NCBI GenBank assembly: GCA_036785375.1
Contig: JAWMAR010000064.1
Span: 9,052,001-9,116,000, forward strand
DNA length: 64,000 nt
From: Leucoraja ocellata
Lineage: Eukaryota
Direction of reading: 5' to 3'
Of the stretch, positions 2,815-53,289 are shown one piece after another (the first letter of the stretch is position 1; each line of letters begins with the position of its first letter). The position numbers were made by a program, and so were the translations under genes. The notes beneath the pieces are model-generated. The model worked only from the letters and a program-made list of their open reading frames with translations. It was not told the DNA's origin and did no database searches.

Positions 2815-2928
2815 GTCTGAAGAAGGGTTCTTCAGTCTGAAGAAGGGCCTCAACCCGAAACATCGCCAATTCCTTCTCTCCATAGATGCAGCTTCACTCG
2901 CTGAGTTACTCCAGCATTTTGTGTCTAT
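2815..2928 (+). mobile_element. Penelope pLTR-derived short repeat with hammerhead-like core
   Basis: CTGAAGAAGGGCCTCAACCCGAAACATC...GAGTTACTCCAGCATTTTGTGTCT; more than 10 related copies in the window. Confidence 0.7.
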
Positions 2929-3049
2929 CTACATGAAAGACAAGTTAAAGATGCCACATGAGCACCAATTTTCCTTTTATTTAATCCAATTAATGCCCTT
3001 CCTACTCCACAAGCAACATTACCTATTATGGGCAAATGTATTCGGTGGA

Positions 3050-4554: not shown

Positions 4555-5085
4555 TGTAGGAAAGAACTGCAGATGCTGGTTTGAATCGAAGGTAGACACA
4601 AAAAGCTGAAGGAACTCAGCGGGACAGGCAGCATCTCTGGAGAGAAGGAATGAGTGATGTTTCGGGTCGAGATCCTTCTTCAGACTCAAACTGAGGTGGG
4701 AAGGGACAAAATGAAAAAAGGGAGACAGGGTAGAGTCAAGATAGGAAGTTCAGTTGAGTTCATTTCATTTTAGTTTATTGCCAGGTGTAGCGAGGTACAG
4801 TGAAAACTCTTGTTGCGTGGTAACCAGTCAGCGGGAAAGACAATACATGATTACAATCGAGACATTTACAGTGAACAAATACATGATAAGGGAGTAGGTC
4901 ACGGGCAGAACATACAGATCGGTCTGAAGACGTGTCTCGACCGGTAACGTCACCCATACCTTCTCTCCAATACAATACAATACAATACCTTTATTTGTCA
5001 TTTGAACCTCACATGAGGTTCAAACGAAATTTAGAGATCCAGAGATGCTGCCTGTCCCGCTGAGTTACATCAGCATTTTGTGGCT
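4555..5085. mobile_element. Inverted pair of Penelope-derived repeats interrupted by two LINE-tail insertions
   Basis: Minus copy at 4555-4686 and plus copy at 4922-5085, the latter split by an insert at ~4970-5040. Confidence 0.7.
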
Positions 5086-5536
5086 ACTCACAGCTCACCA
5101 GTCTAATTTACGATCGATCCCAAGTCCAATTGCAATAGCTGCTGGAACCTATCAGCTTAGAAACATAGTTCAGTTACTGCTCACAATTCACACTGACAAG
5201 GCTTCATAACACAATCTCTCCCCTGCCACATGTCGAGAAGATGCGAGACATTAAATGGAAATTTTTACTTCAGCATGGAAAATGTGGAGCCACACTACTT
5301 GTGATACTTGACACTTGAGCTCCCACTTCACACCCATTTTACACTTGTAAACACACATTTGGTTTGCTCATCCGGAAATGGAAACATGGACAGTGTCCAA
5401 TGTCGCCCAGTGCTCTTGCCTAAGTTAGCAGACATTAGAGAATGTGAATAAGAAGGTTCTGTTTTCACACAGTGAACTTCCTTTAGTGTGAACGGACGCC
5501 AGCAGCAAGTAAAATTGAACAAATTAGCCTCATAAT

Positions 5537-5803
5537 TTTAGTTTAGTTTAGAGATACAGCGTGGAAACAGGCCCTTCAGCCCACCGTGTCTGCACTGACC
5601 AGCGATCCCCGCACATTAACACTAGGGACAATTTTACATTTAAATCAAGCCAATTAACCTGAAACCTGTATGTCTTTGGAGTGTGGGAGGAAACCGAAGA
5701 TCTCGGAGAAAACCCACGCAGGGTGCAGGGAGAACGCACAAACACAAACCGGGTCTCAGGCGCTCTGGGGCAGTAGCTTTTCCGCTGTGCCACCGTGCTG
5801 CCC
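5537..5803 (-). mobile_element. HE1-like V-SINE (tRNA-derived head, CR1-like tail)
   Basis: Reverse complement starts GGGCAGCACGGTGGCACAGCGG; core ...CCTCCCACACTCCAAAGAC...; tail (CTAAA)n. Confidence 0.8.
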
Positions 5804-5809
5804 ACTTGC

Positions 5810-6260
5810 TCACATTTTGCACACACATGCTCCCAAAAACAGCAATGACCAGGTCATCAGTTTGGGAGGTAAATATGATTCAGAAAGCAATATTCAATAC
5901 AATACAATACAATATGGTGTATTTGTCACATTGCACATAAGTGCAAATGAAATGAATATGTCAGCAGCGGTACAATTATAAAGAACACACACAAAAACAC
6001 AATAAAAATTTAACAAAAACATCCACCACAGCATTCATGACTGTGGTGGAAGGCACACAATATGAATATTCTTTGACTATTCTTCTTTGAGTTGTGCCAT
6101 GGGATATTTTGCATCCACATAAAAGTGCAGACAGGCCATTGATTTTACATTTCATCCAAGAGACATCTTTGACAATCCCTCTGCAGTGACAGGAATCTCA
6201 ACCTACCTTATGTGTAAGTCTCTTTAGTAGGGCTTAACCTTCTATCTCAGGGGGTTAAGA
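5810..6260 (-). mobile_element. Old DeuSINE (SacSINE1/AmnSINE1-like) relic, split by an insert at 5896-6065
   Basis: GTGCCATGGGATATTTTGCATCCAC...GCAGACAGG resembles the Deu domain as I recall it; duplicated at 8795-9075. Confidence 0.6.
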
Positions 6261-8179
6261 AGACAGGAGAATTTTTGTACTTCAAGGCTGACTGGCGGAA
6301 ATAGAAACCATTAAATACCATGGAAAACCCAGGCCAGTAATGCACTAATCATATAAATGGTCAAACCATGAAATAAAATGTTACCAAATCCATGAAAAAA
6401 AACAAATGTCAGAAAGCACAACATGAATTTACAGAAGCTAAGTAGGATGCTGTTTAACATTAATGGAGCAAACTAATAATATGTTTAAGAGAGAAGATGG
6501 CCTGAGCAGATCACAGGTAATTTCTAAAACAAACATAATAGAATCAGCAGGATAATAGTTACTCAAATGTGAAATTAAAGTAATCCATTCTGTACAACTT
6601 TGTGTGAAAATAGCTAAACAAAAGCATAAAATGCATGATTTATCAGCCTATTAATTGGATAATGATAATCTCAGTAAATCATGTGGTGAATTTACTGGGA
6701 TATTGATGTTCTTGGTCCTGTGATGTTGTATTTACTATATAGGATCTATTTTCACTCATTTGAAGCATTAGAATTAATTATTCACTTAATTTAACACTTC
6801 TACTTTAAAAAGTATTCTTAAAATTTAGAAATTTTAAATGTAGAAACTTTTGGTAAATTATCAGGGAATTTTCTACTAATCCTATGAATTGGTACACGTG
6901 ACAATAAAGCACTTTTGAAACCTTTGAATTCATGATATTTAAAATAAGTGTGCTTTTAAAATCTAACAATTTATAATCACATTTCTTGGCAAATTCTTAA
7001 TGTAAACAAATTGCTCCTTAACTAGCATATATTACCCAAAATGATAGAGCATCTCAGAAGTGTAGAGTATAAATTTGCTATTTTGAATGTGACCGGATCT
7101 TCTAATTATTATTCCACAGAAATAAATGGTACTGTTGATAATTAAATTTAATGCCTCTTCTCTGATGTCCGTTTGGCATCTTGGCTTTTCGACATGTTGT
7201 CCTTTCGGCATCTTGGCTTCGGCTTCTTAGCTTCAGCTTCTCGTCCTTCGGCGTCCTGTCCGCACATGTGGGGAAATAGTTATGTAATATTCATAATTTA
7301 AGAATGTTTGTTTTACTTTGTATCATGGTGGAGGATTTGTTCATATTGTTTTGTATTGTACGTATCATTTTTGTAAATAATTGATTTAAATGCTTTTATT
7401 TTTTTTAAAAAGGGCTCCTCTGTTGCCTTCAACCGGATCGGCCTGCGAACTGACGTAACATTTCATTCTGTGGAATAATATTCAGAAGACCTCTACTTCC
7501 TGAGTCTTCTCAGGAAGTAGTGTTGGTGTGCTTTCTTGGCTGTCGTATCAATGTGATTGGTCCATGACAGATTGTTGGTAACATTAATACCTAGCAACTG
7601 GGTGACGTTTCGGGTCGAGGCCCTTCTTCAGACTTGGGAAGGGTCTGGACCGGTAACGTCACCCATTCCTTCTCTCCAGAGATGCTGCCTGTCCCACTGA
7701 GTTACACCAGCATTTTGTGGCTACTCACAGCTCACCAGTCTAATTTACGAACGATCTCAAGTCCAATTGCAATAACTGCTGGAACCTACCAGCTTACAAA
7801 CATACTGTAGCTCAGTTACTGCTCACAATTCACACTGACAAGGCTTCATAACACAATCTCTCCCCTGCCACATGTCGAAAAGATGCGAGACATTAAATGG
7901 AAATTTTTACTTCAGCATGGAAAATGTGGAGCCACACTACCTGTGATACTTGACACTTGAGCACCCACTTTACACCCATTTTACACTTGAAAACACTTAA
8001 ATTTGCTTTGCTCATCCTGAAGTGAGGACATAGACAACTGCAATGTCACCCAGTGCTCTTGCCTAACTTAGCAGACATTAGAGAATGTGAACAAGAAGGT
8101 TCTGTTTTCACACGGTGAGCTTCCTTTAGTGTGAACGGATGCCAGCAGCAAGTAAAATTGAACAAATTAGCCTCAGAGA

Positions 8180-8789
8180 TTTAGTTTAGTTCAAGTTGAA
8201 GTTCAAGTTCAAATGTATTTGTCATGTGCTCCGTAAGGTGCAGTGAAATGTAATTTACCATGCAGCGTTACAATTTAAAAAAGACACAATACACACCATA
8301 ATTCAACACAGGCATCCACCACAGTATTCTTCACTGTGCTGGAACGCAATACAGTTCAGACAGTCCTCCTCCTCCTCCCTTGTTCACCCATGGTCGGGGT
8401 CCTGACCCTTCGTAGTCGCCGCTACGGACCGCCTGATTGTCAAGCCCTCTGGTCAGGATGCTCGGAACGCCGACGTCGGGAAAGGTCGGAAGATAGTTTA
8501 GGGATACAGTGCGAAAAAAGGCCCTTCGGCCCACCGTGTCAGCACTGACCAGCGATCCCCACACAGTAACCTGCCCTACACACACAGGGAACAATTTTAC
8601 ATTTAATTAACCTACAAACCTGTACGTCTTTGGAATGTGGGAGGAAACTGAAGTCCTCGGAGAAAACCCACACAGGTCACAGGGAGAATGTACAAACTCT
8701 GTACAGGCAAATACCTGTAGTCAGTCTTGACCCCGGGTCTCGGGCGCTGTGGGGCAGTAGCTTTGCCACTGCACCAGCGTGCTGCCCAC
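8180..8789 (-). mobile_element. HE1-like V-SINE (duplicate of 5537-5803) with a ~300-bp insert at 8190-8492
   Basis: Same SINE and flanks as unit A; the insert is absent from unit A. Confidence 0.8.
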
Positions 8790-9824
8790 TTGCTCACATT
8801 TTGCACACACAAGCTCCGAAAAACAGCAATGCGATAAATGACCAGGTCATCAGTTTGGGAGACAAATATGGTTCAGAAAGCAATATTCTTTGAATATTCG
8901 TCTTTGAATTGTGCCATGGGATATTTCGTATCCACATAAAAGGGCAGACAGGCCATTGATTTTACATTTCATCCAAGAGACATCTTTGACATTCCCTCTG
9001 CAGTGACAGGAATCTCAACTTACCTTATGTGTTGAAGTCTCTGTAATAGGGATTAACCTACTATCTCAGGGGGTTAAGAAGACAGGAGAATGTTTGTACT
9101 TCAAGGCTGACTGGCGGAAATAAAAACCATTAAATACCATGGAAAACCCAGGCCAGTAATGCACTAATCATAGAAATGATAAAGCCATGTAATAAAATGT
9201 AAACGCAATCTATGAAAGAAAACAAATGTCAGAAAGCACAACATGAATTTACAGAAGCTAAGTAGGATGCTGTTTAACTGTAATGGAGCAAACTAATAAT
9301 ATGTTTAAGAGAGAAGATGGCCTGAGCAGATCACAGGTAATTTCTAAAACAAAACATAATAGAATCAGCAGGATAATAGTTACTCAAATGTGAAATTAAA
9401 GTAATCCATTCTGGCCAACCTTGTGTGAAAATAGCTAAACAAAGTATAAAATGCATGATTTATCATCCTATTAATTGGATAATGATAATCTCAGTAAATC
9501 ATGTGGTGAATTTACTGGGATATTGATGTTCTTGGTCCTGTGATGTTGTATTTACAATATAGGATATATTTTCACTCATTTGAAGCATTAGAATTAATTA
9601 TTCACTTTAATAAAATAGTCCCCAGTGTGTGTAGGGCAGTGTTAATGTGTGGGGATTGCTTGTCGCTGCGGACTCAGTTGGCCGAAGGGCCTGTTTCAAC
9701 GCTGTATCGCTAAACTAAGCTTAAGCCCAAGGCTCCTGCAGGTGTCCACGAGCACCATGGGGGGTTTCCAGAACCGTTGGGCACCGCGGGGTGTGGAATG
9801 CATCCTCCAACGGTATGGGGAAAT

Positions 9825-10498
9825 GGTACCAGGACAGGACGCCAAAGGATGAGAAACCGAAGCCAACATGCCGAATGGACACGATGCCTAAAGGACATGA
9901 CGTCGAATGGACATGAACTCGAAAATTTATGACACTGAACCGCACATGAAGCCGAAATGATTATCAGTATGAAACACTTTAAAAAATCTATATTTACTGC
10001 AAGAATTGTTGCACCTTGTTACATTTTAAAATAGTTAAATTGTTGTACCTTGTAAGTCTCCGGGAACAGGATTGGTCCGACAGCTTGGTAGTCATAGACA
10101 AATGTCAGCGATTGGTCCAGACCCCTGCGAAGTCCATCACATCACTGCCTCTGTGGCAATCGCAGCAGCTTGGAGTCACTGCCACCATTTTACAAATGTA
10201 AGCTTAAGATCCCCCCCACCCTCCTGTCTCTCCTCGGCCAGTGATGTGATGGACTCAGGGGTCTGGACCAATCGCTGGCCTTGGTTGATGACTGACAAGG
10301 TGTCAGACCAATCCTATCCCAGGAGACGTTATGTCCGTATGGAGTCATGTCCGTTCAGCGTCATGACTTTTCGATGTCATGTCCGTTCGGCGACATGTCC
10401 ATTCGGCATCTTGGCTTTTTGACATGTTGTCCTTTCGGCATCTTGGCTTCGGCTTCTTGGCCTCAGCTTCTCGGTCTTCGGTGTCCTGTCCGCACACG
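9825..10498. mobile_element. Mutator/Foldback-like non-autonomous element
   Basis: ~140-170-bp inverted arms built of GCCGAA/GGACA subrepeats; 9-bp direct repeat TGGGGAAAT at 9816-9824 and 10499-10507. Confidence 0.75.
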
Positions 10499-11519
10499 TG
10501 GGGAAATAGTTATGTAATATTCAGAATTTAAGAATATTTGTTTTACTTTGTATCATGGTGGAGGGTTTGTTCGTATTGTTTTGTATTATACATATCATTT
10601 TTGTAACTAATTGATTAAAATTATTATATTTTTTTATATAAAGGCTCCTCTGTTACCTTCAACCGGATCGGCCTGCGAACTGACGTAACATTTCATTCTG
10701 TGGAATAATATTCAGACCTCTACTTCCTGAGTCTTCTTAGGAAGCAGTGTTGGTGTGCCTTCTTGGCTGCTGCATCATTGTGATTGGTCCATGACAGATT
10801 GTTGGTAATTAATATCCAGGAACTGGGTGACGTTTTGGGTCGAGACCCTTCTTCAAAGTTGGGAGGGGTCTCGACCAGAAATGTCAACCATTCCTTCTCT
10901 CCAGAGATGCTGCCAGTCCCGATGAGTTACTCCAGCATTTTGTGCCTACATGCTTATGTTGTTGTAAGGTCTCTTCAATTTGTTCCATTGCATTTACCTC
11001 TCTAACAATGTCAGGCAGACATAAGAGTAAAATAAGTACAGAGCCTTCTGAAACAATGAAAAAAGGTGCAATATAGTGTCGTCACTGAAGTCAAACATCA
11101 TCAGTTATTAGGCATGCTTTAGTGCCATATGGATTAATGGTTGAGACACTTGTAAAAGACCTAAGGAGCAAGCTTCCAATAAGCAAGCAGGCACTAGAAT
11201 TAAAGGTAAGTTGAAAAACTATAAAACATTTTATTATTATAGTATTTACTTATTAATGTTATTATTGTATTTCATTTTATGCTTTACTTTTTAAACCTAT
11301 GCCAACACCTACTTTGGCAATTTTGCCAGTCCTATTCCCTCATTCTTTCCTCGTAGCCCTCGAAGGGTAAAGGGTGCTGGCTCGAAGGGCCGAATGGCCT
11401 ACTACTGCACCTATTGTCTATTGTCAATTGTCTATTGTCAAATGCATAATCAATTCCATTTTGAAGGCGATGATAGATTTGATTACCTCCCTCCTCACAG
11501 GCAGCAAGTTTACTTTTTT

Positions 11520-13726: not shown

Positions 13727-14918
13727 GGGAAGTGGCGGCGCTGTTAACAGCTGCGGCTCGCCTGCAGTCCGTCTGTCTTTACTTTTTTCTGTTGTTTTTT
13801 TTGTCTTGTTTTGGTTAAGTTTTAGTTTGTTGGGTTGTGTTAGAGGGGGTGAAACATGTTCTCTGTCTCTTCCTTCGGGGGAATGCGACTTTTTCGTGTC
13901 GTATCCCCCTTCTCTGCCTACGTCTGCGCTGAGGCCTAATGGCGGAGCTGGCGGCCTCCAACCTGCGACCGACCCCGAGGCTCTGGAGGCAGAGCCAGCC
14001 AGGACTCACCAATGAGAGGCTGGCCGTCTTTGGGGCTAAGGCAGCGGTGGCCCGACTTGCTGGTGCGGCGTCCTGGCTTTCGGCGGCGGCCTGGAGCTGA
14101 TGCAGCGGGGCTCGGAGCTGAGACTGCGGGACCCAGAGCTGGGGCGGCGGCCTGGAGCTGGGGCAGCGGCCCGGAGCAGAGACTGCGGGCACCGGAGCGG
14201 AGACTGCGGGACCCGGAGCTGGGGTGGCGGCCCGGAGCGGAGACTGCGGGCACCGGAGCGGAGACTGCGGGACCCGGAGCTGGGGTGGCGGCCCGGAGCG
14301 GAGACTGCGGGGCTCGGAGGTGAGACTGCGGGACCCGGAGCTGGGGCGGTGGCTCGGAGCGGAGACTGCGGGACCTGGAGCTGGGGTGGCGGCCCGGAGC
14401 GGAGACTGCGGGCACCGGAGCGGAGACTGCGGGACCTGGAGCTGGGGTGGCGGCCCGGATCGGAGACTGCGGGACCCGGAGCTGGGGCGGCGACTCGGAG
14501 CTGAGACTGCGGGCACCGGATCGGAGACTGCGGAACCTGGAGCTGAGGCGGCGGCCCGGAGCGGAGACGGTGGGACCTGGAGCTGGGGCGGCTGCCCGGA
14601 GCTGATGGTGTGGCGGGCCGTCTCGGAGACGGCGTTCCGGCGTTCGGCGGCGGCGACATCACCACGGAGGTCCGCTGGACTGGAGAGCGGCATCTTCAGC
14701 CTGGATCGATCGCCTCAGCGCAGAGGGAGAACAAGGAGGGAAGAGACGGAGACTAAGACTTTGCCTCCATCACAGTGAGGATGTGCTTGGTGAACTCACT
14801 GTGGTGGATGTTTAATTTGTGTTTATTGTATGTTTTGTTATTATTGATTCTGTGTATGACTGCAGGCAACATAATTTCGTTCAGACCGAAAGGTCTGAAT
14901 GACAATAAAGGATCTATC
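13727..14918 (+). mobile_element. Non-autonomous retroposon with Rex1-like tail and internal GC-rich minisatellite
   Basis: 3' part CCATCACAGTGAGG...CACTGTGGTGGATGT...AATAAAG is shared with 27640-28205 and with the inserts at 5896-6065 and 8190-8492. Confidence 0.6.
14085..14630. repeat. GC-rich minisatellite with alternating ~21-bp subunits
   Basis: Repeated GGAGCGGAGACTGCGGGACCC / GGAGCTGGGGTGGCGGCCC; open in several frames on both strands. Confidence 0.95.
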
Positions 14919-16299: not shown

Positions 16300-16920
16300 G
16301 TCAAGGAACTGCAGGTGCTGAACTCATAAAAGTTCTGGATCAACTCCCCGGGGTCAGGCAGAATCTATGGAGGGAATGCATTGGCAATGTTTTGGGTCGG
16401 TACCCTTCTTTCGACTGACTCTAGCAGTGGAGAAGGAAGCTGAAAAGGAGGNNNNNNNNNNNNNNNNNNNNNNNNNNNNNNNNNNNNNNNNNNNNNNNNN
16501 NNNNNNNNNNNNNNNNNNNNNNNNNNNNNNNNNNNNNNNNNNNNNNNNNNNNNNNNNNNNNNNNNNNNNNNNNNNNNNNNNNNNNNNNNNNNNNNNNNNN
16601 NNNNNNNNNNNNNNNNNNNNNNNNNNNNNNNNNNNNNNNNNNNNNNNNNNNNNNNNNNNNNNNNNNNNNNNNNNNNNNNNNNNNNNNNNNNNNNNNNNNN
16701 NNNNNNNNNNGGCTGGAGTAAGTGACAAAGGTTAGAGATGCAAAGGAGACAAAATGGTATCATATAAGGACAGAAGAGGAATTAAATATAAAGCCAGGAG
16801 GGGTGTGGGGGGGGGGGATTAGAGGTTAACAGTGAAAGAAATGGACAGGGTGAAAGGAGGCAGAATAGTGGGAAGAAATTAGTGTACAGAAAAGACATAG
16901 GGGTAAGGTCAAGTGCGGGT

Positions 16921-16951
<31 letters not shown>

Positions 16952-17010
16952 AGGGTTCCTGGAAATTTGAGAGTGCAATGTTCATGTCTTTGGGTGATAA
17001 GGTGCCCGAG
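16300..17010 (-). mobile_element. Penelope-like element 3' region (GIY-YIG C-terminus plus pLTR), spanning a gap
   Basis: Minus strand reads LGTLSPKDMNIALSNF, typical of the Penelope ORF end, then a pyrimidine-rich UTR and the short repeat seen throughout the window. Confidence 0.65.
16452..16710. other. Assembly gap (N run)
   Basis: Run of N. Confidence 1.
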
Positions 17011-17422
17011 CTTTAAATGTCCAGATTGAAATCAGGTGGAATATACGATCAGAGATGAAATGTCCAAATTTGCCAAGGAAAAGAAATGTAAACTTATTTC
17101 TCATAATCCTTCCAGTGGTAACTGGATATAACATGACTAGTTTGTATGGCATTCAAAACTAATCTTGCTTTAATAACTTCGACAACCAGCTCAGTGCATC
17201 TCCTGGTTTAGTTGCAAATGGCAAAGATTGAAAGTTTATAAATGTTTTGGAGACAGTAAAACACGAACAAAAGTACCCCTAGCAACGAAAACCTTTAAAA
17301 TTCTCTGAATTCCGTTTAATAGAATGAATTTCAGGGACAATGACAAAGAAACTTAACATCTTGGCAGACTGTTTTAAATTATCCTAAAATGTTTTCATAA
17401 AAATATCTAGGTTAACACATAT

Positions 17423-17612
17423 AGACACAAGGATGCTGGTTTACCAAGAAATTACGCAGTCTGCTGGAGTGACTCAGCAGGTCAGGCAGCAACTCTGGAG
17501 GACAAGAATAGGCAACAATTCAGGTCGCTCTGAAGAAGGATCCCATCCCACAGCGTTGCCTATCCATGTTCTCCAGTGATAAAGCCTGACCTGCAAAGTT
17601 AATCCAGCACTT
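17423..17612. mobile_element. Diverged inverted pair of the Penelope-derived repeat
   Basis: GCTGGAGTGACTCAGCAGGTCAGGC...CTGAAGAAGGATCC...GCCTGACCTGC...CCAGCA. Confidence 0.6.
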
Positions 17613-17659: not shown

Positions 17660-20418
17660 GGATTTATTTTAAGACAAGATGTCTATGGATAAGGAGCATG
17701 AACTCAGGGCATGGATTGGTACATTGTAATCATTACGGGAACCAATCTAAGAAAGGGGCAGGACTGGCAGCTTAACATTCCAGTGTCCAGGTGTTACAGG
17801 AGAGAAAGAGGTGGGGGTAAAAGAGCTAAAGAATGCTTTATTCATTTAGGAGAATGTCATGGTGGTAGTCAAAGATGACATTACTAATGGCTCGGCCAGT
17901 GAGGCTACATGGATGGATCTGAGAAATAAAAGGGATGATCACCTAGTTGGGAATGTACTATCAAACAGTCAATGATAATTAGAAGAGCAAATATGCCGGG
18001 ATATTGCAGGCAGCTGCAAGACTTACAAGGTTGACATGGCAGGGCATTTTAACTTTCCCAATATAGACTGGAAATGTCATGGTGCCAAGGGCTTAGATGG
18101 GGTGGAATTTACCAAATCGGTTCAGGAAAGGTTTCTCAGACAATATGTAGAGGGCCCTACATGGGAGAGGGCAAACTTGTACGAATGTTAGGAAACTGGG
18201 AGGGCAAGTGACTGAAGTGTCAGTGGGAAAGCCTTTTGGAACCAGCGGTCACTATTGTATTACCTTTAAAATAGTTATGTATAAAGACAGGGCAAGCCCA
18301 CGGGTTCAAATTCTGAAGATAAACACAAAATGCTGGAGTAACTCAGCAGGACAGGCGGGCAGAGAAGGAATGGCTGAAGTTTAGGGTCGAGACCTTTCTT
18401 CAGGCTCAAATTTCAGACAGACTTCTTTCAGACTTAAAATTGGCCAAATTTGATGGTATTTAACAGGAACTTGGTGAGGTTGATTGGAGTAGGTTGTTTG
18501 TGTGCAAAATAAACCTCCAGAGAATGGGATGCTTTTAAAAGTGTGATGTCAAATGTTCAGGGCATACATGTCCGTATTAGAATGAAGGGCAATCAGGTGA
18601 AGGGCAGTAAGGAAGCTTGGATGATGAGAGAAATTAAGGCTCCGGTCAGGAAAAAGAAGGAGGCACAGGACAGGAATAGGCACCTGGAATCAGGTGTATT
18701 CTGGAGGAGTTTCAGCAACTGAGGAGCATACGTAAGATAGAAATCAGGAGGGCAAAAATGGGGCAGGAGATACTGTGGCTCTGACAGATAATATTAAGGA
18801 CAATCCAAAGAAATGTTAGGTCAAATAAGGGGAAAAGGGTTACTAGAGAGGGGATAGGAACCTTCCGAAACCAAAAGATTGAGTTCACCTCCCTCACATG
18901 TCAGATCTCTCTATGGAGAAACGCTGGAGATGGGCATATCTGTGACCATAAGATAAGCCTGTGACGGAGGAATCAGTGCTGGGCCCATTGCTGTTTGTGG
19001 TTTATATTTGGATGAGAATGTACAAGGCAAGATTAGTAAGTTTGCAGATGATGCTAAAGTGGGTGTTATGGTAGAAAGCAAAGACGGTTGTCATGAAATA
19101 CAACAGAATCGTAATCAGTTGGGCAAGTGGGCTGAGGAATGGTTAATGGAGTTTAATGAAAATATAGTGTGAGGTGTTGCATTTTGGGAAGTCAAACCAG
19201 GGCAGGACTTTCATAGTGAGTCGCAGGGCCCTGGGGAGTGTTGTAGAGCAGAAGGATCTAGGAGTATAAGTATGTGGTTCCTTGAAAGCCGTGTCACAAG
19301 TAGATGGAGTGGTCGAGAAGGCTCTTGGTACATTGGCTTTTATCAATCTGGGCATTGCGTATAGAAGTTGGGATGTTATGTCATAGTTGCACAAGATGTT
19401 GGTGAGGCCACATTTAGAATATCGTGCTCAATTTTGATCACCCTGCTATAGGAAGGATGCTAAAGGTGGGAAATAGTGCAGTGAAGATTCACGAGGATGT
19501 AGCCAGGACTTGAGGGCCTGAGCTATAGGGAGAGGTTGGGCAGGCTAGGACTTTATTCCTTGGAGCGCAAGAGAATGAAGGGTGATCTTATAGGGTGCAT
19601 AAGATCATGAGGGGAATAAATGGAGTAAATGCACAGTCTTTTGCTCAGAATAGGGGTATCAAGGAAACGAGGACAAAGGTTTAAGGTGAGACTTAATTGG
19701 AACCTGAGGGGCGGGTTTTTCACAGAGTGTGGTGGCTATATGTGGTCTCATCGCAGACCCTCGGACTATCTTCAATCAGGTTTTACTGTACTTTATCTTG
19801 TACTAAACATGATTCCCTTTATTATGTATCAGTATAGTGTGGATGGCTGGATTGTGATCATTTATTGTCTTTCCGCTGACTTGTTAGCACGCAACAAAAG
19901 CTTTTCACTTTACCTTGCTACACGTGACAATAAACTAAACCTTATGGAATGAGCTGCCAGAGATGGTAATTGAGGCAGGTACAATTACAACATTCATGAG
20001 ACATTTGGACAGGTACATGGATAGGAAAGGTTTAGGGAGATATGGACTAAACACAGGCAGGTTGGACTAGTGTTCAAGAAGGAACTGCAGATGCTGGTGA
20101 ATCGAAGGTAGACAAAATTGCTGGAGAAACTCAGCGGGTGCGGCAGCATCTATGGAGCGAAGGAAAGAGGCTACGTTTCTGGCTGAAACCGTTCTTCTGA
20201 CTGAATTCAGATTATTCAGATTGAGTCTGAAGAAGGGTTTTGGGCCGAAAAGTCGCCTCTTTCCTTTGTTCCATAGATGCTACCGCACCCGCTGAGTTTC
20301 TCCAGCAATTTTGTCTACATCAGTTTGGACTAGTGTAGTTTGGGCATTTTGGTCGGCATGGGCAAGTTAGGCTGAAGAGCCTGTTTCCGTACTGTATGAC
20401 ACTATGATGCTTTCTATG
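17660..20418 (+). mobile_element. Decayed CR1 LINE ORF2 (endonuclease, partial RT, 3' UTR) with nested inserts
   Basis: ELRAWIG, FNFPNIDW and ISKFADDAKVG motifs, many stops, internal deletion near 18900; inserts at 18318-18432, 19745-19940 and 20074-20324. Confidence 0.85.
20074..20324. mobile_element. TSD-flanked inverted pair of the Penelope-derived repeat
   Basis: ~95-bp inverted arms; direct repeat TTGGACTAGTGT at 20062-20073 and 20325-20336. Confidence 0.8.
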
Positions 20419-23247: not shown

Positions 23248-23925
23248 AGAGTCAATAGTCAAGAGTGTTTTATTGTCATATGTCCCAGATAGGACAATGA
23301 CATTCTTACTTGCAGCAGCACAACAGAATATGTAAACATAGTACACTGTAAACAATATGATAAATGAGAAAAAAAGCATTCAGTGTGTGTACATATATAC
23401 ACATAGCCACATTTACATATATTATATATACATATACACACACATATATGTATATGTTCAGAGGTTATTTGGAGGTTGTAGTGTTTAATAGCCTGATGGC
23501 TGTTGGGAAGAAAGCTGTTCCTGAACCTGGACGTTACTGTTTTCAGGTTGCTGTACCTGCTTCCCGATGGCAGAGGTGAAATGAATGTGTGGCCAGGATG
23601 GTGTGGGTCTCTGTTGATGCTGGCTGCCTTTTTGAGGCAGCGACTCCTGTAAATCCCTTCGATGCTGAGGAGGTCAGAGCCGGTAATGGATTGGGCAGTG
23701 TTCACAACATTTTGCAGTCTTCTTCTCTCCTGTGCATTCAAGTTGATGAACCGAGCCATGATGCAACCAGTCAATATGCTCTCTACTGCGCGCCTGTAGA
23801 AGTTCAAGAGAATCCTCTCTGACACACTGAATCTCCGCAGTCGTCTCCGGAAGTAGAGACATTGGTGGGCTCCTTTGTAATTGCATCAGTGTGATGGGTC
23901 CGGGAAAGATCTTCAGAAATATGCA
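23248..23925 (-). mobile_element. Rex1/Babar LINE 3' fragment
   Basis: ORF 23259-23825: ILLNFYRRAVESILTGCI...DPHHPGH...LPSGSRY...SRFRNSF. Confidence 0.85.
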
Positions 23926-33507: not shown

Positions 33508-34069
33508 TTTGCTGAAACTAGTGGCAGCTCTAAAGCTGATCTTCTCAGGCATAGGTCTTTTCTAGACCAACGCCCGGCCCGGCCGTCATGGAAAATGCTC
33601 AATCCTCGCACCCTGCAGTTCTAGCCTCCAAACGGAGGGGACGGAAACAGAACCCTTATTAGGGCCATTGGGCCTGCTATCAGACCACTGGTAACCATGG
33701 AGGTAGGTGGGTCTGGTTCTTTCCGGAACATGAGATGTGTGGACCAGTTACAAGTTGGTGGTAGATTACACTTGTTTTTGCATGAATGGCGGTGGATAAC
33801 TTTAGACCCGTTTATACTGCACAGTATGAAGAAATTCAACATTGAATTTTTACCAGCATTGCTCCAGTGACATTTTGATCAGTAAACCTTTAATTATACT
33901 ACAAACTGATGCAAGTGCACAAGGATAGGGAGCTACTAATACCATCTCTAGTTGTGGCAGCAGATGGGATATGCACAAGTTACCATTTATCCATCTATAT
34001 GGTATCAATTACCTGGAGATGCTGGGGTCATTCTATGGGTTGAAGGCATAATCTGCATGTCCGACTGCA

Positions 34070-34680
34070 AATTGATAACACTACAGCGGTGGCATATATT
34101 AATCACATGGGTGGTATCAGATCAGTATTCTGTGATAGTTTAGCGAACCTCATTTGGAGCTGGTGTATTGAAAGAAGGGTTTGTATCTCAGCTACCTACT
34201 TGCCAGGTAGGTTTAACACGGTGGCAGACACTAGGTCAAGTAAATTTAATGATAACACAGAATGGATGTTTGATCACAAAGTGTTTAATGACGTTATTGC
34301 TCGATATGGAATGCAGGATATTGATTTGTTTGTATCTAGGCTTAATCACCAGTTGCCAAAATATGTTGCATGGGAGCCAGACCCAGGGGCAGTAGCGATA
34401 GATGCATTCTCGTTACACTGGGGAGGAATGTTCTTTTATGCCTTTCCTCCCTTTTGCCTCATCAGCCAGTGCTTGCTAAAAATCAATCAAGATTCCACTT
34501 CAGGTATTTTAGTAGTGCCTGACTGGCCTACTCAGCCATGGTTCCCGTTGATGTTAGGAATGTTAACGGAATAATATATGGTTATCAGCAAGCACAAAGA
34601 TTTACTTGTTCATCCCATGACTCGGGAATCTCACCCTCTGCATGACAAGATCAACTTATTGATTGCAGAGTTTAAGAAGA
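34070..34680 (+). pseudogene. DIRS RNase H C-terminus plus DNA adenine-methyltransferase-like domain
   Basis: AYINHMGG...YLPGRFNTVAD, then DIDLF.SRLNHQL...DAF...YAFPPF...VVPDWPTQPWFP. Confidence 0.88.
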
Positions 34681-36307: not shown

Positions 36308-36580
36308 GAAGACACTCAAAAAGTTGGAGCAACTCAGGTAGCTTCTAAGGAGAGAAGGAATGAGTGACATTTCGGGTTGAGACCCTTCTTCAGACTGAAA
36401 GTCATGGGAAAGGGAAACGGGAGATATGGGCGATAATGTAGAGAGATAAAGAACAATGAATGAAAGATGTGCAAAAAAGTAACAATGATAAAGAAACAGG
36501 GCATTGTTAGCTGTTTGTTGGGTGAAAACAAGAAGCTGGTGCGATTTGGGTGGAGGAAGGATAGAGAGAGAGAGAGGGTA
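36308..36580 (-). mobile_element. Penelope pLTR fragment
   Basis: Reverse complement CTGAAGAAGGGTCTCAACCCGAAATGTC plus adjoining UTR. Confidence 0.6.
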
Positions 36581-36929
36581 TGGTTTTATATTCAGCCTCG
36601 CACCTTAGTAACAGAATGCCCCTGGACTCAGTTTTCAAGTCCAAGCAAACAAAAGGTCACCTTTGCCTGCATCTGATCAGCAGTACATTCTGCACTCTAA
36701 TGCGCTGGGAGGTGTGGAATGAGCTGATGCTTGCGTTGCAGTTAGTTGTACTGTGATTCTCTATAGAACTGTTAGTGTGATCTCACTATATTGCCAAAGA
36801 CAATTGGAAAAACATCCTTCATTTGCATTGTGCCTGGTGCAATTCTAAAATGATCTTCCACTTCCACGAAGAACTTGTGAAGTGGGTAACATAGGATGCT
36901 GGTCTACATAGCCATTGCCCTGCAGGCAC

Positions 36930-37503
36930 GGAGCTCTGGAACAATACCATAAAAGATTCTGAGGATCAGCTGGGAGGACAAACACACGAACATCAGCGTT
37001 TTGCCAACATGACCAGCATCGCCACCACAATAATGCAGCACCAACTTCGATGGACTGGCCATGTTATCCCCATGTCCAACTCACATCTCCCTAAACAGAT
37101 CCTGTACTCTCGACTGAAGGAAAGTCGGCGAGCCCCCGACGGGCCAAAGAAATGCTTCAAGGACAACATCAAGAACAGTTTGAAGAAATTCCACATCACA
37201 TCGAGCAACTGGGAGCACATTGCACTGGACAGGCGCTCCTGGAGGAAATCCGTGCAGGAAGGAGCTGCACGTCATGAAATGGAACTACGCCGTGTCGCAG
37301 AGACAAAGCGACAGCACCGCAAGGAGAGAGAGAAGGGGGCTCGACGACTACCAACCAGTCTCCCCTGCCCACGTTGCACCAAGGTGTGTGGATCTCGGAT
37401 CGGCCTCCACAGACATCTGCAGACCCACAAGTAGACGACCCTATGGAGAGGAGAGGAGAGGACAGTCATACTCGTTTTGAGTGACCACCGATGTTGATGA
37501 TGA
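36930..37503 (+). mobile_element. RTE (BovB-like) LINE 3' fragment
   Basis: QLRWTGHV.PM....LPKQILY...DRRSWR...CPRCTKVCGSRIGLHRH; (GAT)n tail. Confidence 0.88.
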
Positions 37504-39829: not shown

Positions 39830-39980
39830 TGTGTGGGAAAGAACTGCAGATAATGGTTTAAATCAAAGGTAAACACTAAATGCTGGAGTAACTCAGGCAG
39901 AAGAAGGGACTCGAGACAAACGTCACCCATTCCTTCTCTCTAGAGATGCTACCTTAGTTACTCCAGGATTTTGTGTCGAT
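39830..39980. mobile_element. Penelope-derived inverted-pair repeat
   Basis: GAACTGCAGA...GCTGGAGTAACTCAG then GAAGAAGGG...AAACGTCACCCATTCC...TTTTGTGTC. Confidence 0.65.
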
Positions 39981-40740
39981 CTGCCTTTGTTTTATATTGT
40001 GCTGCGGGCAATCAAATTTCTTAAATGTTTTTTTTATGTTTCTTTTATTTGGAAGCAATTGTACAAGAAGAAAGTAATCGACATAACTATTATACAATTT
40101 TCGTACAGCTTCAGTTTTAACATTTTATAAACTGATAAGTGAATCGGAAAAAAATAAAAAGGAAAGAATGAAAAGGAAGAAGAAAGATACAAAAAAAGAA
40201 AGAAGAAAAATCCCCTGAACTAACAAAGAAATAAATAGAAAAAGTGGAGATATATCCCACTACACTTCCCTTCGCCCGCTCACTCGACCCGAGCGTCGGT
40301 TTTGAATTTGTGTTCAACCATTATGTTGTTGAAGAAAATCAATGAAAGGAGACCATATATTGGAAAATTGGTCTGATTTGTCAGCCAAAACAAGCCTTAC
40401 TTTTTCTAAATGTAGTGTCTCGATCATTTCTGTGATCCACATCTTCACTGTTATCTTTTTCCAGAATTTAAGTATGTTTTTTCGCAGTTATTAAACTATA
40501 GTCAAGGAAACGTCTTTGGAATATCGTTAATTTAGGGCAGCCCTCTGACATTCCTAATATTGTTAATTTTGAATCTGACTCCAATTGAATTTCGAGTGTT
40601 TTAGAAATGGTATTGAATATTCCAATCCAGAAATTTTGTATTTTTATACAGGATACAAAAGAATGGGTTAGGGTAGCTTCTTGGAGGTGACATTTATCAC
40701 AGAGAGGGGAGACAGTTGGGAAAATCATATTCAATTTGGT

Positions 40741-40943
40741 GTTTAAGAGGGAACTGCAGATGCTGGAGAATCGAAGGTTACACAGAAAAGCTGGAGAAAC
40801 TCAGCGGAACTCAAACTCAGCTTGTCCCCACCCACCCCCACCCCCGATCAGTCTGAAGAAGGGTTTCGGCCCGAAACGTTGCCTATTTCCTTCGCTCCAT
40901 AGATGCTGCTGCACCCGCTGAGTTTCTCCAGCTTTTCTGTGTA
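40741..40943. mobile_element. TSD-flanked Penelope-derived inverted repeat inside L1
   Basis: 14-bp TSD ATATTCAATTTGGT (40727-40740, 40944-40957); core CTGAAGAAGGGTTTCGGCCCGAAACGTT. Confidence 0.85.
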
Positions 40944-41336
40944 ATATTCAATTTGGTCTTTGGGTAGTGTAACCTATGCAATACTTTGAATTGTATCAGG
41001 CAAGGTCTGCCATTTAAAGAACAGTAATGTATGTATAGTAAGCTTTCCTCCCATATATCTTTTGAAATTGGTTAAACCCAGCTCGTCCTCCCATGCTCGC
41101 CTATAAATCTCAGAATGTGGGGTATCAATTTTTAAGAGAGTTATAAATGTAAGATATCAAATTACTTGTATCGGCATGTCTATTGAAACAATCGTCTAAT
41201 ATATCTGGACCCATAAAAGGACAGTCTTGTGTATATGTTTGCACGTAATCTCGGATTTGAAGGTATCTGAAAAAATTGTTTGAGTTCAAGTGATATTTCT
41301 CCTGTAGTTCTTGAAAAGAAAAGAGTCCCCTTCTTA

Positions 41337-43268
41337 AACCCCTTTCTCACGGGGCGACTTGACGCAAGAGTTAACCAGAGTTGAACATCGTGGGAACCTC
41401 TGGCGATAACCGTACGGCATTCGTGGACCACCGTGGCACTAACGGCAGGTACTCGTGTAACTTGGTGACTCGGGAGAAAAATCAAACAAGCTTGAATTTC
41501 TCCAAGAGTGACTTGTACACTTGTGGTTGAACATTGAAACATTATATGCATGTAGTGGCCAGTGCGATATCCGTACTGACTCTTGCGTGTTCCGTGGGAA
41601 CTCCTGCGAACGGTGAACCCGGAAGCTGGACAGAGGGGACAGACGGTGAGTAAAAATTGTCTTCTGTGGGATTAAATTAAAAAAATAAAGACTTGCATCC
41701 GCATATGGACATCAACTTATTCATGTTATGTTAATGAGATTCAAGAAAATAACTATAATCTTTAAAAGGGACTTTACTGAAAGGTCCCGCAGTTTTATGG
41801 TCCGTGAGAAATTTTTCACATGTACTTCTTTGAAGATACAGCTCGGCGCCCTCGCCGACCAGCGATCGATGCCTTTCCGAAGCAGGGTCCGGAAGGCTAC
41901 CAATCAATGTTCTCCAGAGACCCGTGTAAAGGAGTGAACTGTACATGCTAGTTTAAAACGAAGACAGACACAAAAAGCTAGAGTAACTCAGCGAGTCAAG
42001 CAGCATCTCTGGAGAAAAATAGGTGATGTTTCGGGACGAGACACACCTTCAGACTCAATTCCGATTAGGATGTCTGAAGAAGGGTTCCAATTCGAATCGC
42101 CACCTATTCCTTTTCTCCAGAGATGCTGCTTGGCCCGCTGAGTTACTCCAGCATTTTGTGTCTAATTTGTTGATTCAGACAGTTTTTGATTATCAAGGAT
42201 TCTGCGCTGACTCTTTACTCTGAAACACACGTTGGAAATTTAAACTTGGGCGCAACTAACATCGTCTTACTACCGTGGGAACTCTTTAACTCAGCGGGCA
42301 GTCAGCAGTTAATTGTTGCTCCCTTCAGTTTCCCAGGGGGTCGGGACGGGACTGGAGTTGGTAGGGAAAGGTGGGGGAGTCGAGGGAGAGGAGGGTGAGA
42401 CAGATGGGGGTGTCTTCATTTACTGACAGCGGGTGTCTGTCACTGAAACAGGCAGGTGAGATTTCACATCCACCTTGTGTGTGCCTCTCTCTCTCTCCCT
42501 CCCTCCTTCTCACACAGGCTGAGAGACTCTGCCTTTGTGAGTGTACCTATCTTTCTCCCCCTCTCCCACACACAGTAAGACCGAGGTACTGTGCTCAGTC
42601 CATCTGTGTCTCCCACATACACAGTAAAACTCTGCTTTGTGTGTGTGTATACGTCTCCCCTCATTTCTCTCTCTCCCCCCCCACCCCTCTCTTTCTCCCC
42701 CTCCCCACCTCTCTCTTTCTCCCCCTCCCCCATCTCTCTCTTTCTCCCCCTCCCCCACCTCTCTCTTTCTCCCCCCACACACAGTAAGACCGATGTATTC
42801 TGCTTAGTCTCTCTTCGCTCCCACACACATAGATAAACCAAGGTCATGTGCGCTCTTCCGCCAGTCACTCTGATGTACATCACACTGCCTCTGTGCCTCT
42901 CTCTGTGTCTCTCTCCCCCTCTCTCCTAAGTAATGTGGCATCTTCCTGCAGTAAAGTCACGGCATTAGTACAGACATGTCTCCAAATGAGCCAATTCAAC
43001 CAAGGGAGGATATTTATAGTGTGTGAAAAAAAAGTGACACCATTTGTGCCACGTGATGATTTAATTACACTTGACAGTTCACAATGTTCATTCAAGATTT
43101 AACGGGAAAGCTCGGGAGACGGACAAGTCACTCGCACAAATAACAGAAATGCCGAGTACCGTGGGAACTCTTTGTCTACCCCCCGTTATATCGTGTGATA
43201 TCGTGCTAGACCACGACCACTTCACTCTGGTTACATCTTGCGTCAAGTCGCCCCGTGACAAAGGCCTA
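41337..43268. mobile_element. 1.9-kb PIF/Harbinger-type non-autonomous transposon inside L1 ORF2
   Basis: ~45-bp TIR (TCACGGGGCGACTTGACGCAAGA..TAACCAGAGT) and TTA TSD; removing it restores ...TVGYLYKKGTL; it contains a Penelope-derived palindrome at 41960-42165. Confidence 0.88.
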
Positions 43269-46200: not shown

Positions 46201-46829
46201 TTGGTGTGCTCTAATTAAGTAGTTGAATATTGAGAAATGTGACTAATATATGGCATTTATTACTTAACTTTCTATTAATACTGTTTTCATGTAATAGCCG
46301 ACTTTGTCGGTGAATTTATAACAACATTGATTACAAACGCCATTTCACACACTCATTTCTCCTTCTCTCTCTCTCTCTCTCTCTCCCTCTCTCAATCACT
46401 CCAAAACTTTCCAAACCATTCTCTAAACTTTCCAAGACTTTCCAAAACTTTCTCAACAGTTTCCAATACTTCCCCAACCTCTCACACATTAATTCTCTCT
46501 CTCCCCCTCTCTCTCCCCCTCTCCCCGTTTCCCATAACTCCCTCTCTCCCTCTTCCCTTCCCTCTCTCCCAAATCTTTCCACAACTTTCTCAAACATTCT
46601 CCCACATATATTATCTCTCACTCCCTACTTCTCTACTTCTCTACCCCTACCCCTCCCCCTCTCTCCCTCTCTCTCTGTCTCTCTATCTCTCAAGTTCTCT
46701 GTTTGACATATTAACCAACTCTGAGTCAGTGGATTTATAACAACGTATTCATTATAAACACAGTATAAACACAATATAACCCTTTTGAATATCATCATGG
46801 TATATACTCAGTAGCACAAATACTTATCC

Positions 46830-47758
46830 CTTGACGGATCCCGCAGTATCTTGGGCAAACTTGAATGCTTTATCAGGATCGGTAAAAAAGTATTCAGTCC
46901 CTCATAATTTGGCAGGATATAGAAGGCCAAATCAGAGGTCTGGTATGTCCCTCAAAATAGCTATTGACATGGAGAAGAGTGCTCTTTTCTTAACGACATC
47001 GGCAGGAAAGTCTCTGAAGATTCGTATGTTTTCACCTTCAAATGTTAGGTTTTTGTTGTTGGCAACTTTCTGCAGAATGTCCTCTAGAACATGGCAGTGA
47101 TGTACCCTCAAAATCAAATGTCTTGGTGGAGCTGTGCTGTCTGACCGGGCTCTCAGAGCTCTGTGAGCCCGGTCAAGTCTAGGTTTTTCACCCAAAGAGA
47201 GTACCTCTTGCAGTCGTAGAGCCTTAAAATCTCGAAGATTTTTACCATGTTCTTTGCTTTCTTTCACTCCAACAATTCTTAGGTTCTGACGTTTAGAGCG
47301 CCCTTCCAAATCAAGACATTTTTCTGTTACTTTGGCTAGTAACCCGGAGATACGCTCCACCTCAGCCGTCAGCCTGTGTGTTGTCTCGACATTTAAAGCC
47401 ACAGTAGTTTCCAATTCCCGAATAGCCTTGCTTTGTTTTTTTGAAGTATCAAGAATAGGTTCCAACTGATAACGGTTTCAAGCCTGTGGATTTCCCCTTT
47501 CAAGTCGGAATTCACCTCCTCTATACGGGCATCAATCTTATCAATCTTGCCACAGATTTCTACCGTCACAGCTGAAATTTCCACCTTCACTGCAGAAAGT
47601 TGTTCACCCAATAGTGAACGGATATCCTCCAAACCCGGAGGTTGCCTTGCTGCTTCCTCTCGGGGGTGCTCCATAATCGAGGTCGAGGTTTCTTCGGGGC
47701 CTTCAATAACTTCTGGTTGTCGTTTCCTACGTGGTTTTGATGAGTGTCTACCGGGCAT
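46830..47758 (-). pseudogene. L1 ORF1 (coiled coil plus RRM), frameshifted
   Basis: CLDLEGRSKRQNLRIVGVKE...LDRAHR...PRHLILR...IRIFRDF. Confidence 0.9.
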
Positions 47759-48057
47759 TTTAAAAGTACTGGAGTCTCGTTCTGATGACGTCACTTATGC
47801 GACTACTTATCGTCTGCCGGTGAGTATCTTTAAATCTGTCCGGTTTAGATTTTCAGTGGTTTTTCGACGTTTTAGTGGTGCGGAGCTAAATGGCGCATGC
47901 CCTAAGCCACCATAGCGCCACTGGAAGTGCAAATCTCTTCAATGTTAAAGATAATTTTTTAATTTGATTATTTGGTGGGGAAAAGAACAAAATTGCATGA
48001 ACTGTAAATGTTATACATCGTCTGATTTTACTCTTCATTGACTATACAAAAGAGTAA

Positions 48058-48431: not shown

Positions 48432-50260
48432 AAGCTTGCCAGTCCTCCCTCTCTTTTACCCCCACCTCTATTTGGCATGTAGCATATGTACCCTGAAGTG
48501 TTAAGCTACCAGTTCTGTTCCTCTTTTGGTCATGTTTCCATAATGACTTTAACGTCCCAGCACCTATCCAAGCCCTGTGTTCATCCACCTTGCCTGCCAA
48601 TCATTGAAATAAATGGAATTTAATCCAATATAATTTCACACAAATGGGATGGTGGGTGTATGGAAGAAGCTGCCACAGGAGGTAGTTGAGGCTGGGACTA
48701 TCCCAATGACTAAGAAACAGTTCGACAAGTACATAGATAGGACAGGTTTGGAAGGATATGGACCAAGCACAGTCAGGTGGGATTAATGTAGCTGGGACAT
48801 GTTGGCCGGTGTGGGCCGAAAAGCCTGTTTCTACACTGTATCACTCTGTGACTTTATGACTCTAATCCAATCATTTTCCCACTCTCGCTCTTGTATTCCT
48901 GCTATCTTGCCTCCTGAGCTTGCCGTCATTGACGACTGTACTGACTTCCAGCCTCCCTTCCCCTGTTCAATCCAGAGAAGGAACGCTACCCCCTGCACCA
49001 ACCATGCAGCCAAGCATTCATCGGTCCTATCTTCGTATTCTCATACTCATAACCATTTACCTAACTCCTTGTATTCACTCTGCAAGACCTCATCACTCCT
49101 ACATTTATCACCATGCCTTTGTACGCAATGACCTTTGGCTGTTTACAATCTCCCTTGATAATATTCTGCAGCTGCTTTGAGAGAGGCTGGAACTGAGAGC
49201 CCGGGAAGCAACATCTTCCTGGAGCCCTGTTTGCTGCCACATGATTTCCTATCTGTCCTTCCAACTAATGTGCCTCCACTCTCAATCGCCCTGTCTCACT
49301 TTTAAACCCCTCTGCCTGAAGAAGGGTCTCGACCCAAAACTCTATTCCCTTTGTCCTGTCCTTATATATACCCTTCCTTATCTATGCACTGCCCACTCCG
49401 CTGACTCCTCAGCCTGAAAAAGGCTCTCATCCCAAAACGCCACCCATTCCTTCTCTGCCTGTCCCGCTGAGTTACTATTTTGTGTCTATCTTCACTTAAC
49501 CCAACCCTGCTGAACCTTAGAGCTGGGCATAATGCCGTGGACATGACTGTTGCTGCTGCTCTCCTCTGAACAGCCATCCCTCCCCAACAGTAAGCCAAAA
49601 TATATACTTGTTTTTGAGGCCACAGGAGATTCCTAATCTCTCTGCCCCTAGTGGTCACCCATCTATTTTCTGCCTGTAACCGAAGTGTAATGCCCTTACT
49701 ATAACTCCTATCTACAGTATGACGTTCTCATTTTCCTGGACTTCAGAGATACAGACTTTAGAGATATAGCACAGAAACAGGCCCTTCGGCACATGCTGAC
49801 CAGCGATCACCCCATACACTAACAATATCCTACATGCTAGGTACAATTTTACCAAAGTCAATTATCCCCACAAACCTGCACGTTTTTGGAGTGTGAGTGG
49901 AAACCGGAGCACCCAGAGAAAACCCACGCGGTCACAGGGAGATTATTCAAACTCCGTACAGACAGCACCGGTAGTCAGGATCGAACCCGGGTCCCTGGCA
50001 CAACTCTACCGCTGTGCCACTGTGCCACCCCCTTCTTTAGGTCATCTGGCTGCAGCTCCAGTTACCTCATATGTTCAGTCAGAAGCTGCAGTTGGATGCA
50101 CTACCGACAAGTGCAGACACCCTGGCTTCCCACATCCTGCAGTGGGTGCATACCAGTGCTCTAACTGACCTCTCCTGCACTAAGACCAAGGAAGAGTTGC
50201 ACAAAAAAGAGATGGACCTTACCTTACCCTGACGTCACCCTCTGTTCCGCCTCTTTGCAA
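48432..50260 (-). mobile_element. Old CR1 5' and ORF1/EN fragments with nested CR1 tail (48630-48862), Penelope-derived repeat (49315-49492) and V-SINE (49757-50028)
   Basis: Reverse complement of 50040-50118 reads C..CIQLQLLTEHMR.LELQ, like the CR1 ORF1 zinc-finger/zipper. Confidence 0.55.
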
Positions 50261-53200: not shown

Positions 53201-53289
53201 TCTTGGGGTGGCAGCTCTGGCACTCAAGCCTGATGTGCTGGCAGCTCACTCACGGTTGGTGGGCTAGCAATTGACACGGCTATTCCTTG

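Follow-up and report, generated by a model that had tools for sequence, protein, structure and literature searches.

Does the minimal hammerhead core within an abundant short repeat of this DNA belong to a known kind of mobile element, and could it still cleave? The earlier note on the window (the whole stretch of DNA analyzed, 64 kb) had placed such a core at 7600-7634, in what it called the most abundant short repeat there. With 25 profile matches and 15-fold self-BLAST cover, the deepest in the window, the repeat lives up to that description. The minus strand from 7631 (C3) to 7604 (C17) reads CUGAAGA-A-GGGCCUCGACCC-GAAA-CG-UC, a complete type-I core. We number the motif from C3 as 0, with the predicted cut between +27 and +28, that is, between 7604 and 7603.

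A complete core, a stem II of 3 bp or longer, and the 15.2-16.2 pair together served as the hammerhead descriptor, which has three matches in the window (7631-, 36393-, and 40853+). Of 100 dinucleotide shuffles of the window, 95 gave no match and 5 gave one; 600 kb elsewhere in the genome gave 33 matches versus 0 to 2 per shuffle (20 shuffles). The motif thus occurs far above chance, and a chance origin is excluded by these shuffles together with the absence of profile matches on reversed sequence. An Rfam scan of the window at E values up to 5 returned no hammerhead family and only four weak miRNA matches, as would be expected of a core that has no loop III.

Nine cores had been named earlier, of which three pass the full descriptor and six fail: the ACGU palindrome is lost in those at 2837 and 4683, the core at 10851 carries C3U and G12A, those at 20227 and 42074 lack C15.2 and A15.1, respectively, and the core at 49316 carries G12A and is cut short. 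The sites at 10826 and 7600 have common flanks (560 bp at 90%), so the former is a local duplicate rather than a separate insertion.

The flagged copy is the left, shorter arm of a head-to-head pair of pLTRs (Table 1). In its stem II, the fourth position sets C against A and no longer pairs, leaving 3 bp; a 99% inverted duplicate of the region, ~255 kb away on the same contig, keeps that pair. Stem I has 2 bp, as short as had been suspected, with its distal part lost and no native sequence past +33. In source elements, helix I consists of 2 bp, two mismatches, and then two or three loose pairs, and so the earlier doubt as to whether a stem I can form at all receives a weak answer: 2 bp, with one or two loose pairs farther out. 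Folded in context, the flagged core is predicted to lie inside a -61.5 kcal/mol structure with its partner arm, where the probability of stem II is 0.0. The flagged copy is likely inactive, given the loss of the stem II pair and distal stem I and its predicted burial in this hairpin; the suggestion that such repeats may still self-cleave is not supported for this one.

Table 1. Copies and fragments of the repeat family in the window
Feature	Position	Strand	Remark
pLTR end, core start duplicated, palindrome lost	2835..2930	+	profile match
pLTR end, palindrome lost	4588..4685	-	profile match
Short inverted pLTR arm with flagged core	7599..7637	-	stops ~33 nt after C3; preceded by the partner arm instead of native pLTR sequence
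Minimal hammerhead core C3-C17	7604..7631	-	CUGAAGA, extra A, 3-bp stem II, GAAA, ACGU palindrome, GUC
Partner pLTR arm, subfamily A, core destroyed	7638..7724	+	predicted long hairpin with first arm, either strand
Duplicate of the 7600 head-to-head pair	10823..10949		core with C3U and G12A
Old, degraded pLTR end	16329..16414	-	profile match
Worn fragment resembling Penelope ORF C-terminus	16950..17012	-	same orientation as 16414 copy
Old head-to-head pair	17451..17612		profile match
pLTR end, core broken	18315..18403	-	profile match
Head-to-head pair of pLTR ends (B type)	20104..20319		profile match
Subfamily A pLTR end	36312..36395	-	passes descriptor with U.G in stem III
Head-to-head pair, short left arm	39865..39982		profile match
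Youngest-subfamily (B) copy, inverted tail arm before it	40739..40942		hammerhead identical to full-length element L128
Two pLTR ends head to head, each with a broken core	41960..42167		profile match
Two pLTR fragments, same strand, cores broken	49315..49492	+	profile match

The window also contains nested local duplications at 4749-10960 (350-730 bp, 75-95% identity) and two minisatellite arrays (13818-14775 and 53275-53857) in which long frames free of stops occur on several strands. Other retroelements, which we take to be L1-like, DIRS-like, and other LINE-like, have left broken frames at 43630-47794 (-), 34044-34571 (+), 23262-23885 (-), and 36895-37431 (+).

The host element and its short copies

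A genome search with the ORF fragment adjoining the repeat yielded 70,579 first-look candidates, of which 150 were scored, and 20 long-frame loci were fetched. L128 is a young full-length element in which an inverted arm is followed by a pLTR, an open frame of 1247 codons, and another pLTR, with repeats 99.1-99.6% identical. Both of its pLTRs carry a hammerhead identical to the window copy at 40853, which upholds the earlier identification of the motif as a minimal Penelope pLTR hammerhead with a palindromic stem III. Hammerheads also lie inside the pLTRs of Penelope-like retrotransposons (PLEs) at L130, L131, L135, L143, and the subfamily A loci. The L128 frame matches RVT_1 (E 1.9e-6) and GIY-YIG (E 0.011), both under the Pfam cut-offs, and the L095 frame has a GIY-YIG match at the Pfam cut-off. 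Motifs in the L128 frame are DKG (residue 653), YIDD, a CX4CXXC linker (residue 1114), and a CCHH type (CxxC...H...H). PMC8557442 gives a CX2-5CXXC linker between RT and EN as the mark of Neptune/Nematis, and Poseidon was dropped as the clade after the linker had been found. A single ORF with RT and C-terminal GIY-YIG, a tandem pLTR, an inverted 5' copy, and a tail are all present in the family. By motif rather than by tree, the clade appears to be Neptune-type, and on these sequence features the flagged motif is the pLTR hammerhead of a Neptune-type PLE.

The flagged copy belongs to subfamily A, the sister of B. Among loci picked with a query that included a Penelope ORF end, subfamily A comes after such an end in 30 of 30. 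Within the window, a link between repeat and Penelope ORF had been drawn at 16300-17010. The fragment at 16950-17012 does resemble the ORF end (9 of 16 residues, E 6e-5 pairwise), but masked letters separate it from the core at 16412; the firm link comes from loci outside the window.

Two further arrangements were seen in single elements. In the 5' pLTR of L128, a 13-codon upstream frame begins at +50, inside a conserved downstream hairpin, and the main ATG lies at +164. The L044 locus carries head-to-tail arrays (391-662 and 1367-1716) of a 66-nt unit from the pLTR end, whose units begin at GAAACG and thus lack the 5' half of the core.

We estimated abundance from 120 stretches of large contigs, each 10 kb long and placed at a round coordinate (1.2 Mb of the 3.44-Gb genome). 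Profile matches numbered 590 in 111 of the 120 stretches and covered 47,458 bases (4%), with 0 on reversed sequence; extrapolation from this sample, which is not strictly random, gives ~1.7 million matches. Cores intact in the family geometry number 68 in the 1.2 Mb (~195,000 extrapolated). The ACGU palindrome is retained in 47 of them, among which 30 have a 2-bp stem I and 4 have a 3-bp stem I; a whole core with ACGU and a 2-bp stem I would thus occur ~86,000 times by extrapolation. Clustering of 271 near-full copies, using only positions downstream of the cut, separates six subfamilies that are 5.5-20% diverged, and the ACGU stem III palindrome stands in the flagged copy and in all six subfamily consensuses.

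Short copies have preferred ends. We mapped these in 170 A/B copies that reach +80 and are confidently assigned, out of 603 matches. The 3' ends cluster at ~+96 to +104 and at +128 to +131, ~30 nt apart. Among the 5' ends, 25 lie upstream of -25, 18 at -25 to -10, 77 at -9 to +3, 40 at +4 to +23, 5 at +24 to +32 (the cleavage site), and 5 beyond. With 77 of 170 starts at the front edge of the core versus 5 at the cut site, the templates were therefore mostly uncleaved. All six subfamilies have TCAGT at -5 to -1, which we take to match the initiator consensus. Initiator elements have been reported in PLE pLTRs. Head-to-head pairs make up 195 of 534 matches, versus 5 tail-to-tail; the two arms belong to the same subfamily in 28 of 34 pairs versus 7 expected, and private changes common to both arms number 16 versus a control mean of 5.25 (maximum 14 in 200). 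This likeness of the arms fits fold-back and double priming alike, since duplicates may inflate the counts. The repeats had been described as ribozyme-derived and dispersed; they do carry PLE pLTR hammerheads, but are better described as retrotransposed pLTR ends, solo or head-to-head, than as a separate repeat.

The preferred 5' edge probably reflects a transcription start at TCAGT before the core. Its strong rival, to which we give somewhat less than even odds, is that the reverse transcriptase stalls or folds back at self-complementary parts of the hammerhead, so that the edge is not the start of an RNA. By eye, the near-palindrome TCAG(T/A)CTGA forms the junction in ~9 of 34 head-to-head pairs, other pairs turn inside stem II, and 40 of the 170 copies begin within the core; palindromes at inverted junctions are read as self-priming in PMC3846280. 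A cap-derived G at -4 is not enriched either (6 of 23 solo copies, 12 of 31 overall, p 0.13); the post hoc head-to-head subset alone shows a cap-type G there (6 of 8). Nor do starts pile up in the RNA reads described below. Against stalling or fold-back, solo copies with unrelated flanks have the same edge, 36 of 96 starting at -5 to +2; upstream identity falls most steeply at -3/-4 (105 to 79 to 56 of 147 solo sites); and the right arm of a pair ends at this edge whatever the length of the arm joined to it. We favor a start at TCAGT. More specifically, the element RNA might start at the initiator-like TCA(+1)GT, three bases before C3, with helix I as its capped 5' end, a placement that we put forward as tentative.

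Conservation, decay, and cleavage of the core

Excess conservation of the core over its flanks, which the earlier note had made a test of its proposal, is found between subfamilies and is unclear among individual copies. None of 11 core columns varies among the six subfamily consensuses, versus 22 of 86 overall (p 0.03). Among copies, we counted decay in 360 of the 590, scoring 5' core positions in the 84 that have TCAG upstream. Pooled non-CpG mismatch is 111/1912 (5.8%) in the core versus 1745/19715 (8.9%) downstream (p 2e-6), a downstream control that contains hidden subfamily variation; against subfamily-invariant columns, p is 0.09 by column. By base, core and invariant columns differ in opposite directions, with mismatch in the core lower at A (57/1227 vs 185/2110) and higher at T (39/433 vs 193/3161). 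G12 is catalytically essential in hammerheads. Here, it sits in a CpG and is lost in 99 of 352 copies, versus 249 of 1024 for other CpG G positions. The core may be slightly protected among copies, and we infer that selection acts on source elements, with copies decaying essentially neutrally after insertion.

Stem II had been said to vary while keeping its pairing. Pairing does persist through changes from U-A to U.G, but these are one-sided and occur in stem I and stem II alike; in the flagged copy, the fourth pair is broken. Covariation did not materialize: none of the six stem pairs is changed on both sides in the 12 distinct rows from this one genome.

Folding predictions place the active state far from the minimum. 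For all seven copies folded as dimers, the active dimer is predicted 22-30 kcal/mol above the dimer minimum, in a comparison that has no known active dimer as a control. The hammerhead of the young element L128 is likewise predicted off-fold, and fold energies therefore separate live from dead copies poorly. In both L128 and the window copy at 40853, GAAGG of the core is predicted to pair with a downstream CCUUC (+1 to +41), an alternative off-fold. On these models, hammerheads of the family would need help to cleave, in line with the protein-assisted ribozyme of the anole.

Transcripts of the family are abundant in RNA runs labeled organism A, whose species may differ from the source of the window: 9,554-11,250 of 12.9-17.6 million reads match at 90% likeness. 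Read depth climbs smoothly across the cut site, and no pile-up of starts or ends is listed among these reads, which is weak evidence against cleavage because such libraries lose cleaved ends. At 40780-41000 of the window, a single-cell run is skewed ~4:1 to the strand opposite the hammerhead, and unstranded runs are even. Many of the single-cell minus-strand reads extend into the purine-rich upstream part. The skew suggests internal oligo-dT priming, and it may also reflect depletion of sense copies in transcripts.

Could a share of the dispersed copies nevertheless self-cleave when transcribed as part of host RNA, whether by dimerizing in trans or with the element protein, and so affect that RNA? 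We consider this unlikely. The ~86,000 extrapolated cores (30 in 1.2 Mb) with whole core, ACGU, and 2-bp stem I would offer many candidates, the family is well represented in the RNA runs, A positions of the core mismatch less than A positions downstream, and the anole PLE hammerhead cleaves once protein is added (PMC11167929). However, a 3-bp stem I occurs in only 4 of those 30-47 cores, the median in-context probability of stem II is 0.005, and two such cores share a strand in just 4 of 120 stretches. The dimer energies (7 of 7 copies, no positive control) and the decay of G12 at the CpG rate speak against it as well, as do, weakly, the reads that cross the cut site. Published minimal hammerheads are poor cleavers even as dimers.

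More improbable still is an independent non-autonomous element of SINE-like or retrozyme-like type, with the 100-130-nt unit copied from masters of its own. The sharp limits of the unit at both ends would suit such an element, as would the excess of short copies over ORF ends (590 matches vs 26 ORF C-termini in 1.2 Mb). However, within each subfamily the short copies agree with the pLTRs of elements that carry the ORF, head-to-head junctions vary between loci (34 pairs listed), and the 7600 locus has no tandem array of complete cores. Least probable is a 3' splice site at the 5' edge, with copies made from spliced RNA, for although the core follows a long stretch of pyrimidines and a CAG, and an intron of D. 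virilis ends at helix I (PMC4209133), the 71 edge copies have no common upstream exon, 51 of their flanks match nothing in the element, and the two shared pairs are worn pLTR sequence.

The reading that we prefer overall, at a probability of about 0.88, is that the flagged motif is the pLTR hammerhead of a Neptune-type PLE, preserved in the short arm of a head-to-head pair, likely inactive, and of the proposed origin with near-neutral decay. The element protein would start reverse transcription inside its own RNA at two internal points, as in the anole PLE, where two internal RT start sites are tied to the tail signature (PMC11167929). Synthesis would then continue until the RNA ended, at a free 5' terminus ~3 nt ahead of C3 that is likely a transcription start at the initiator-like TCAGT. 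Such runs on uncleaved RNA would yield the 100-130-nt copies, and priming on both strands, or fold-back, the head-to-head pairs. Selection on source elements would keep the core, with cleavage there only as a dimer or with protein help, and the inserted copies would decay essentially neutrally.

Relation to known hammerheads and Penelope-like elements

The motif, the host element, and the head-to-head layout are already in print, and the flagged copy is ordinary. Our searches for Penelope or hammerhead in shark, skate, elasmobranch, and cartilaginous fish found no description, with subscription papers and repeat databases outside the search; within that literature, ribozyme and host element are both of established kinds, and only their occurrence in this lineage is new. 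The value of the family lies in its young full-length members and in an end piece that makes up ~4% of the sampled DNA. Copies that stop at the front edge of the ribozyme, and not at the cut site, bear on what PLE hammerheads are for. If the RNA starts at TCAGT, cleavage would clip off a 31-nt capped leader and act as a protein-gated off switch for the element mRNA, and its role would not be to release the element from a longer RNA. The short repeats, more than a million, would then be cDNAs that began at two internal RT start sites and ran off at the cap, and would document the PLE reaction across the genome. In figure S3 of PMC4209133, 10 of 56 PLE-type motifs have TCA(G/T)T shortly before helix I or inside it (by eye, no control), and the layout may be general.

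The motif conforms throughout to the consensus of the minimal hammerheads of PMC4209133, which share CUGANGA, an extra base before stem II (after A9), G10.1-C11.1, GAAA, NUH, and a palindromic 15.2-16.2 without a loop. They too lie in both pLTRs and are mostly dispersed single motifs with some opposite-strand pairs. Unlike here, the 56 motifs aligned there include no cartilaginous fish. Helix I usually has 3-5 bp in PLE minimal hammerheads and 2 bp in a few, versus 2 bp in this family; the six 2-bp rows in that alignment are all G-C (by eye), whereas one pair here is U-A or U.G. The ~195,000 intact cores compare with ~4,000 in coelacanth and ~9,000 in Xenopus in that study, under descriptors that differ.

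Neptune EN+ PLEs (PMC8557442 and PMC3846280) have the same single ORF with RT and C-terminal GIY-YIG, the CX2-5CXXC linker, a partial tandem pLTR, an adjacent inverted 5'-truncated copy, and an optional 30-40-bp tail. Unlike in those elements, most insertions here are 100-130 nt and have one common start place, and the frame is 1223 aa from its ATG versus roughly 840 aa in the rotifer elements.

Animal non-LTR retrozymes (bioRxiv 10.64898/2026.07.22.740005) are likewise noncoding type-I hammerhead repeats derived from PLE pLTRs and were found in the one chondrichthyan sampled. Retrozyme units are arrayed head to tail, at least two consecutive ones having a complete hammerhead, in contrast to the solo or head-to-head copies here; the 7600 locus is head-to-head and holds one intact core.

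A close parallel for the copying reaction is the anole Poseidon element PAc (Frangieh et al. 2024, PMC11167929). There, reverse transcription starts at two internal sites, which set the tail, the template is mainly uncleaved RNA, and no RNA-seq reads end at the cut site. PAc belongs to another clade, and its ORF starts at stem II, whereas the ATG here lies 164 nt past C3.
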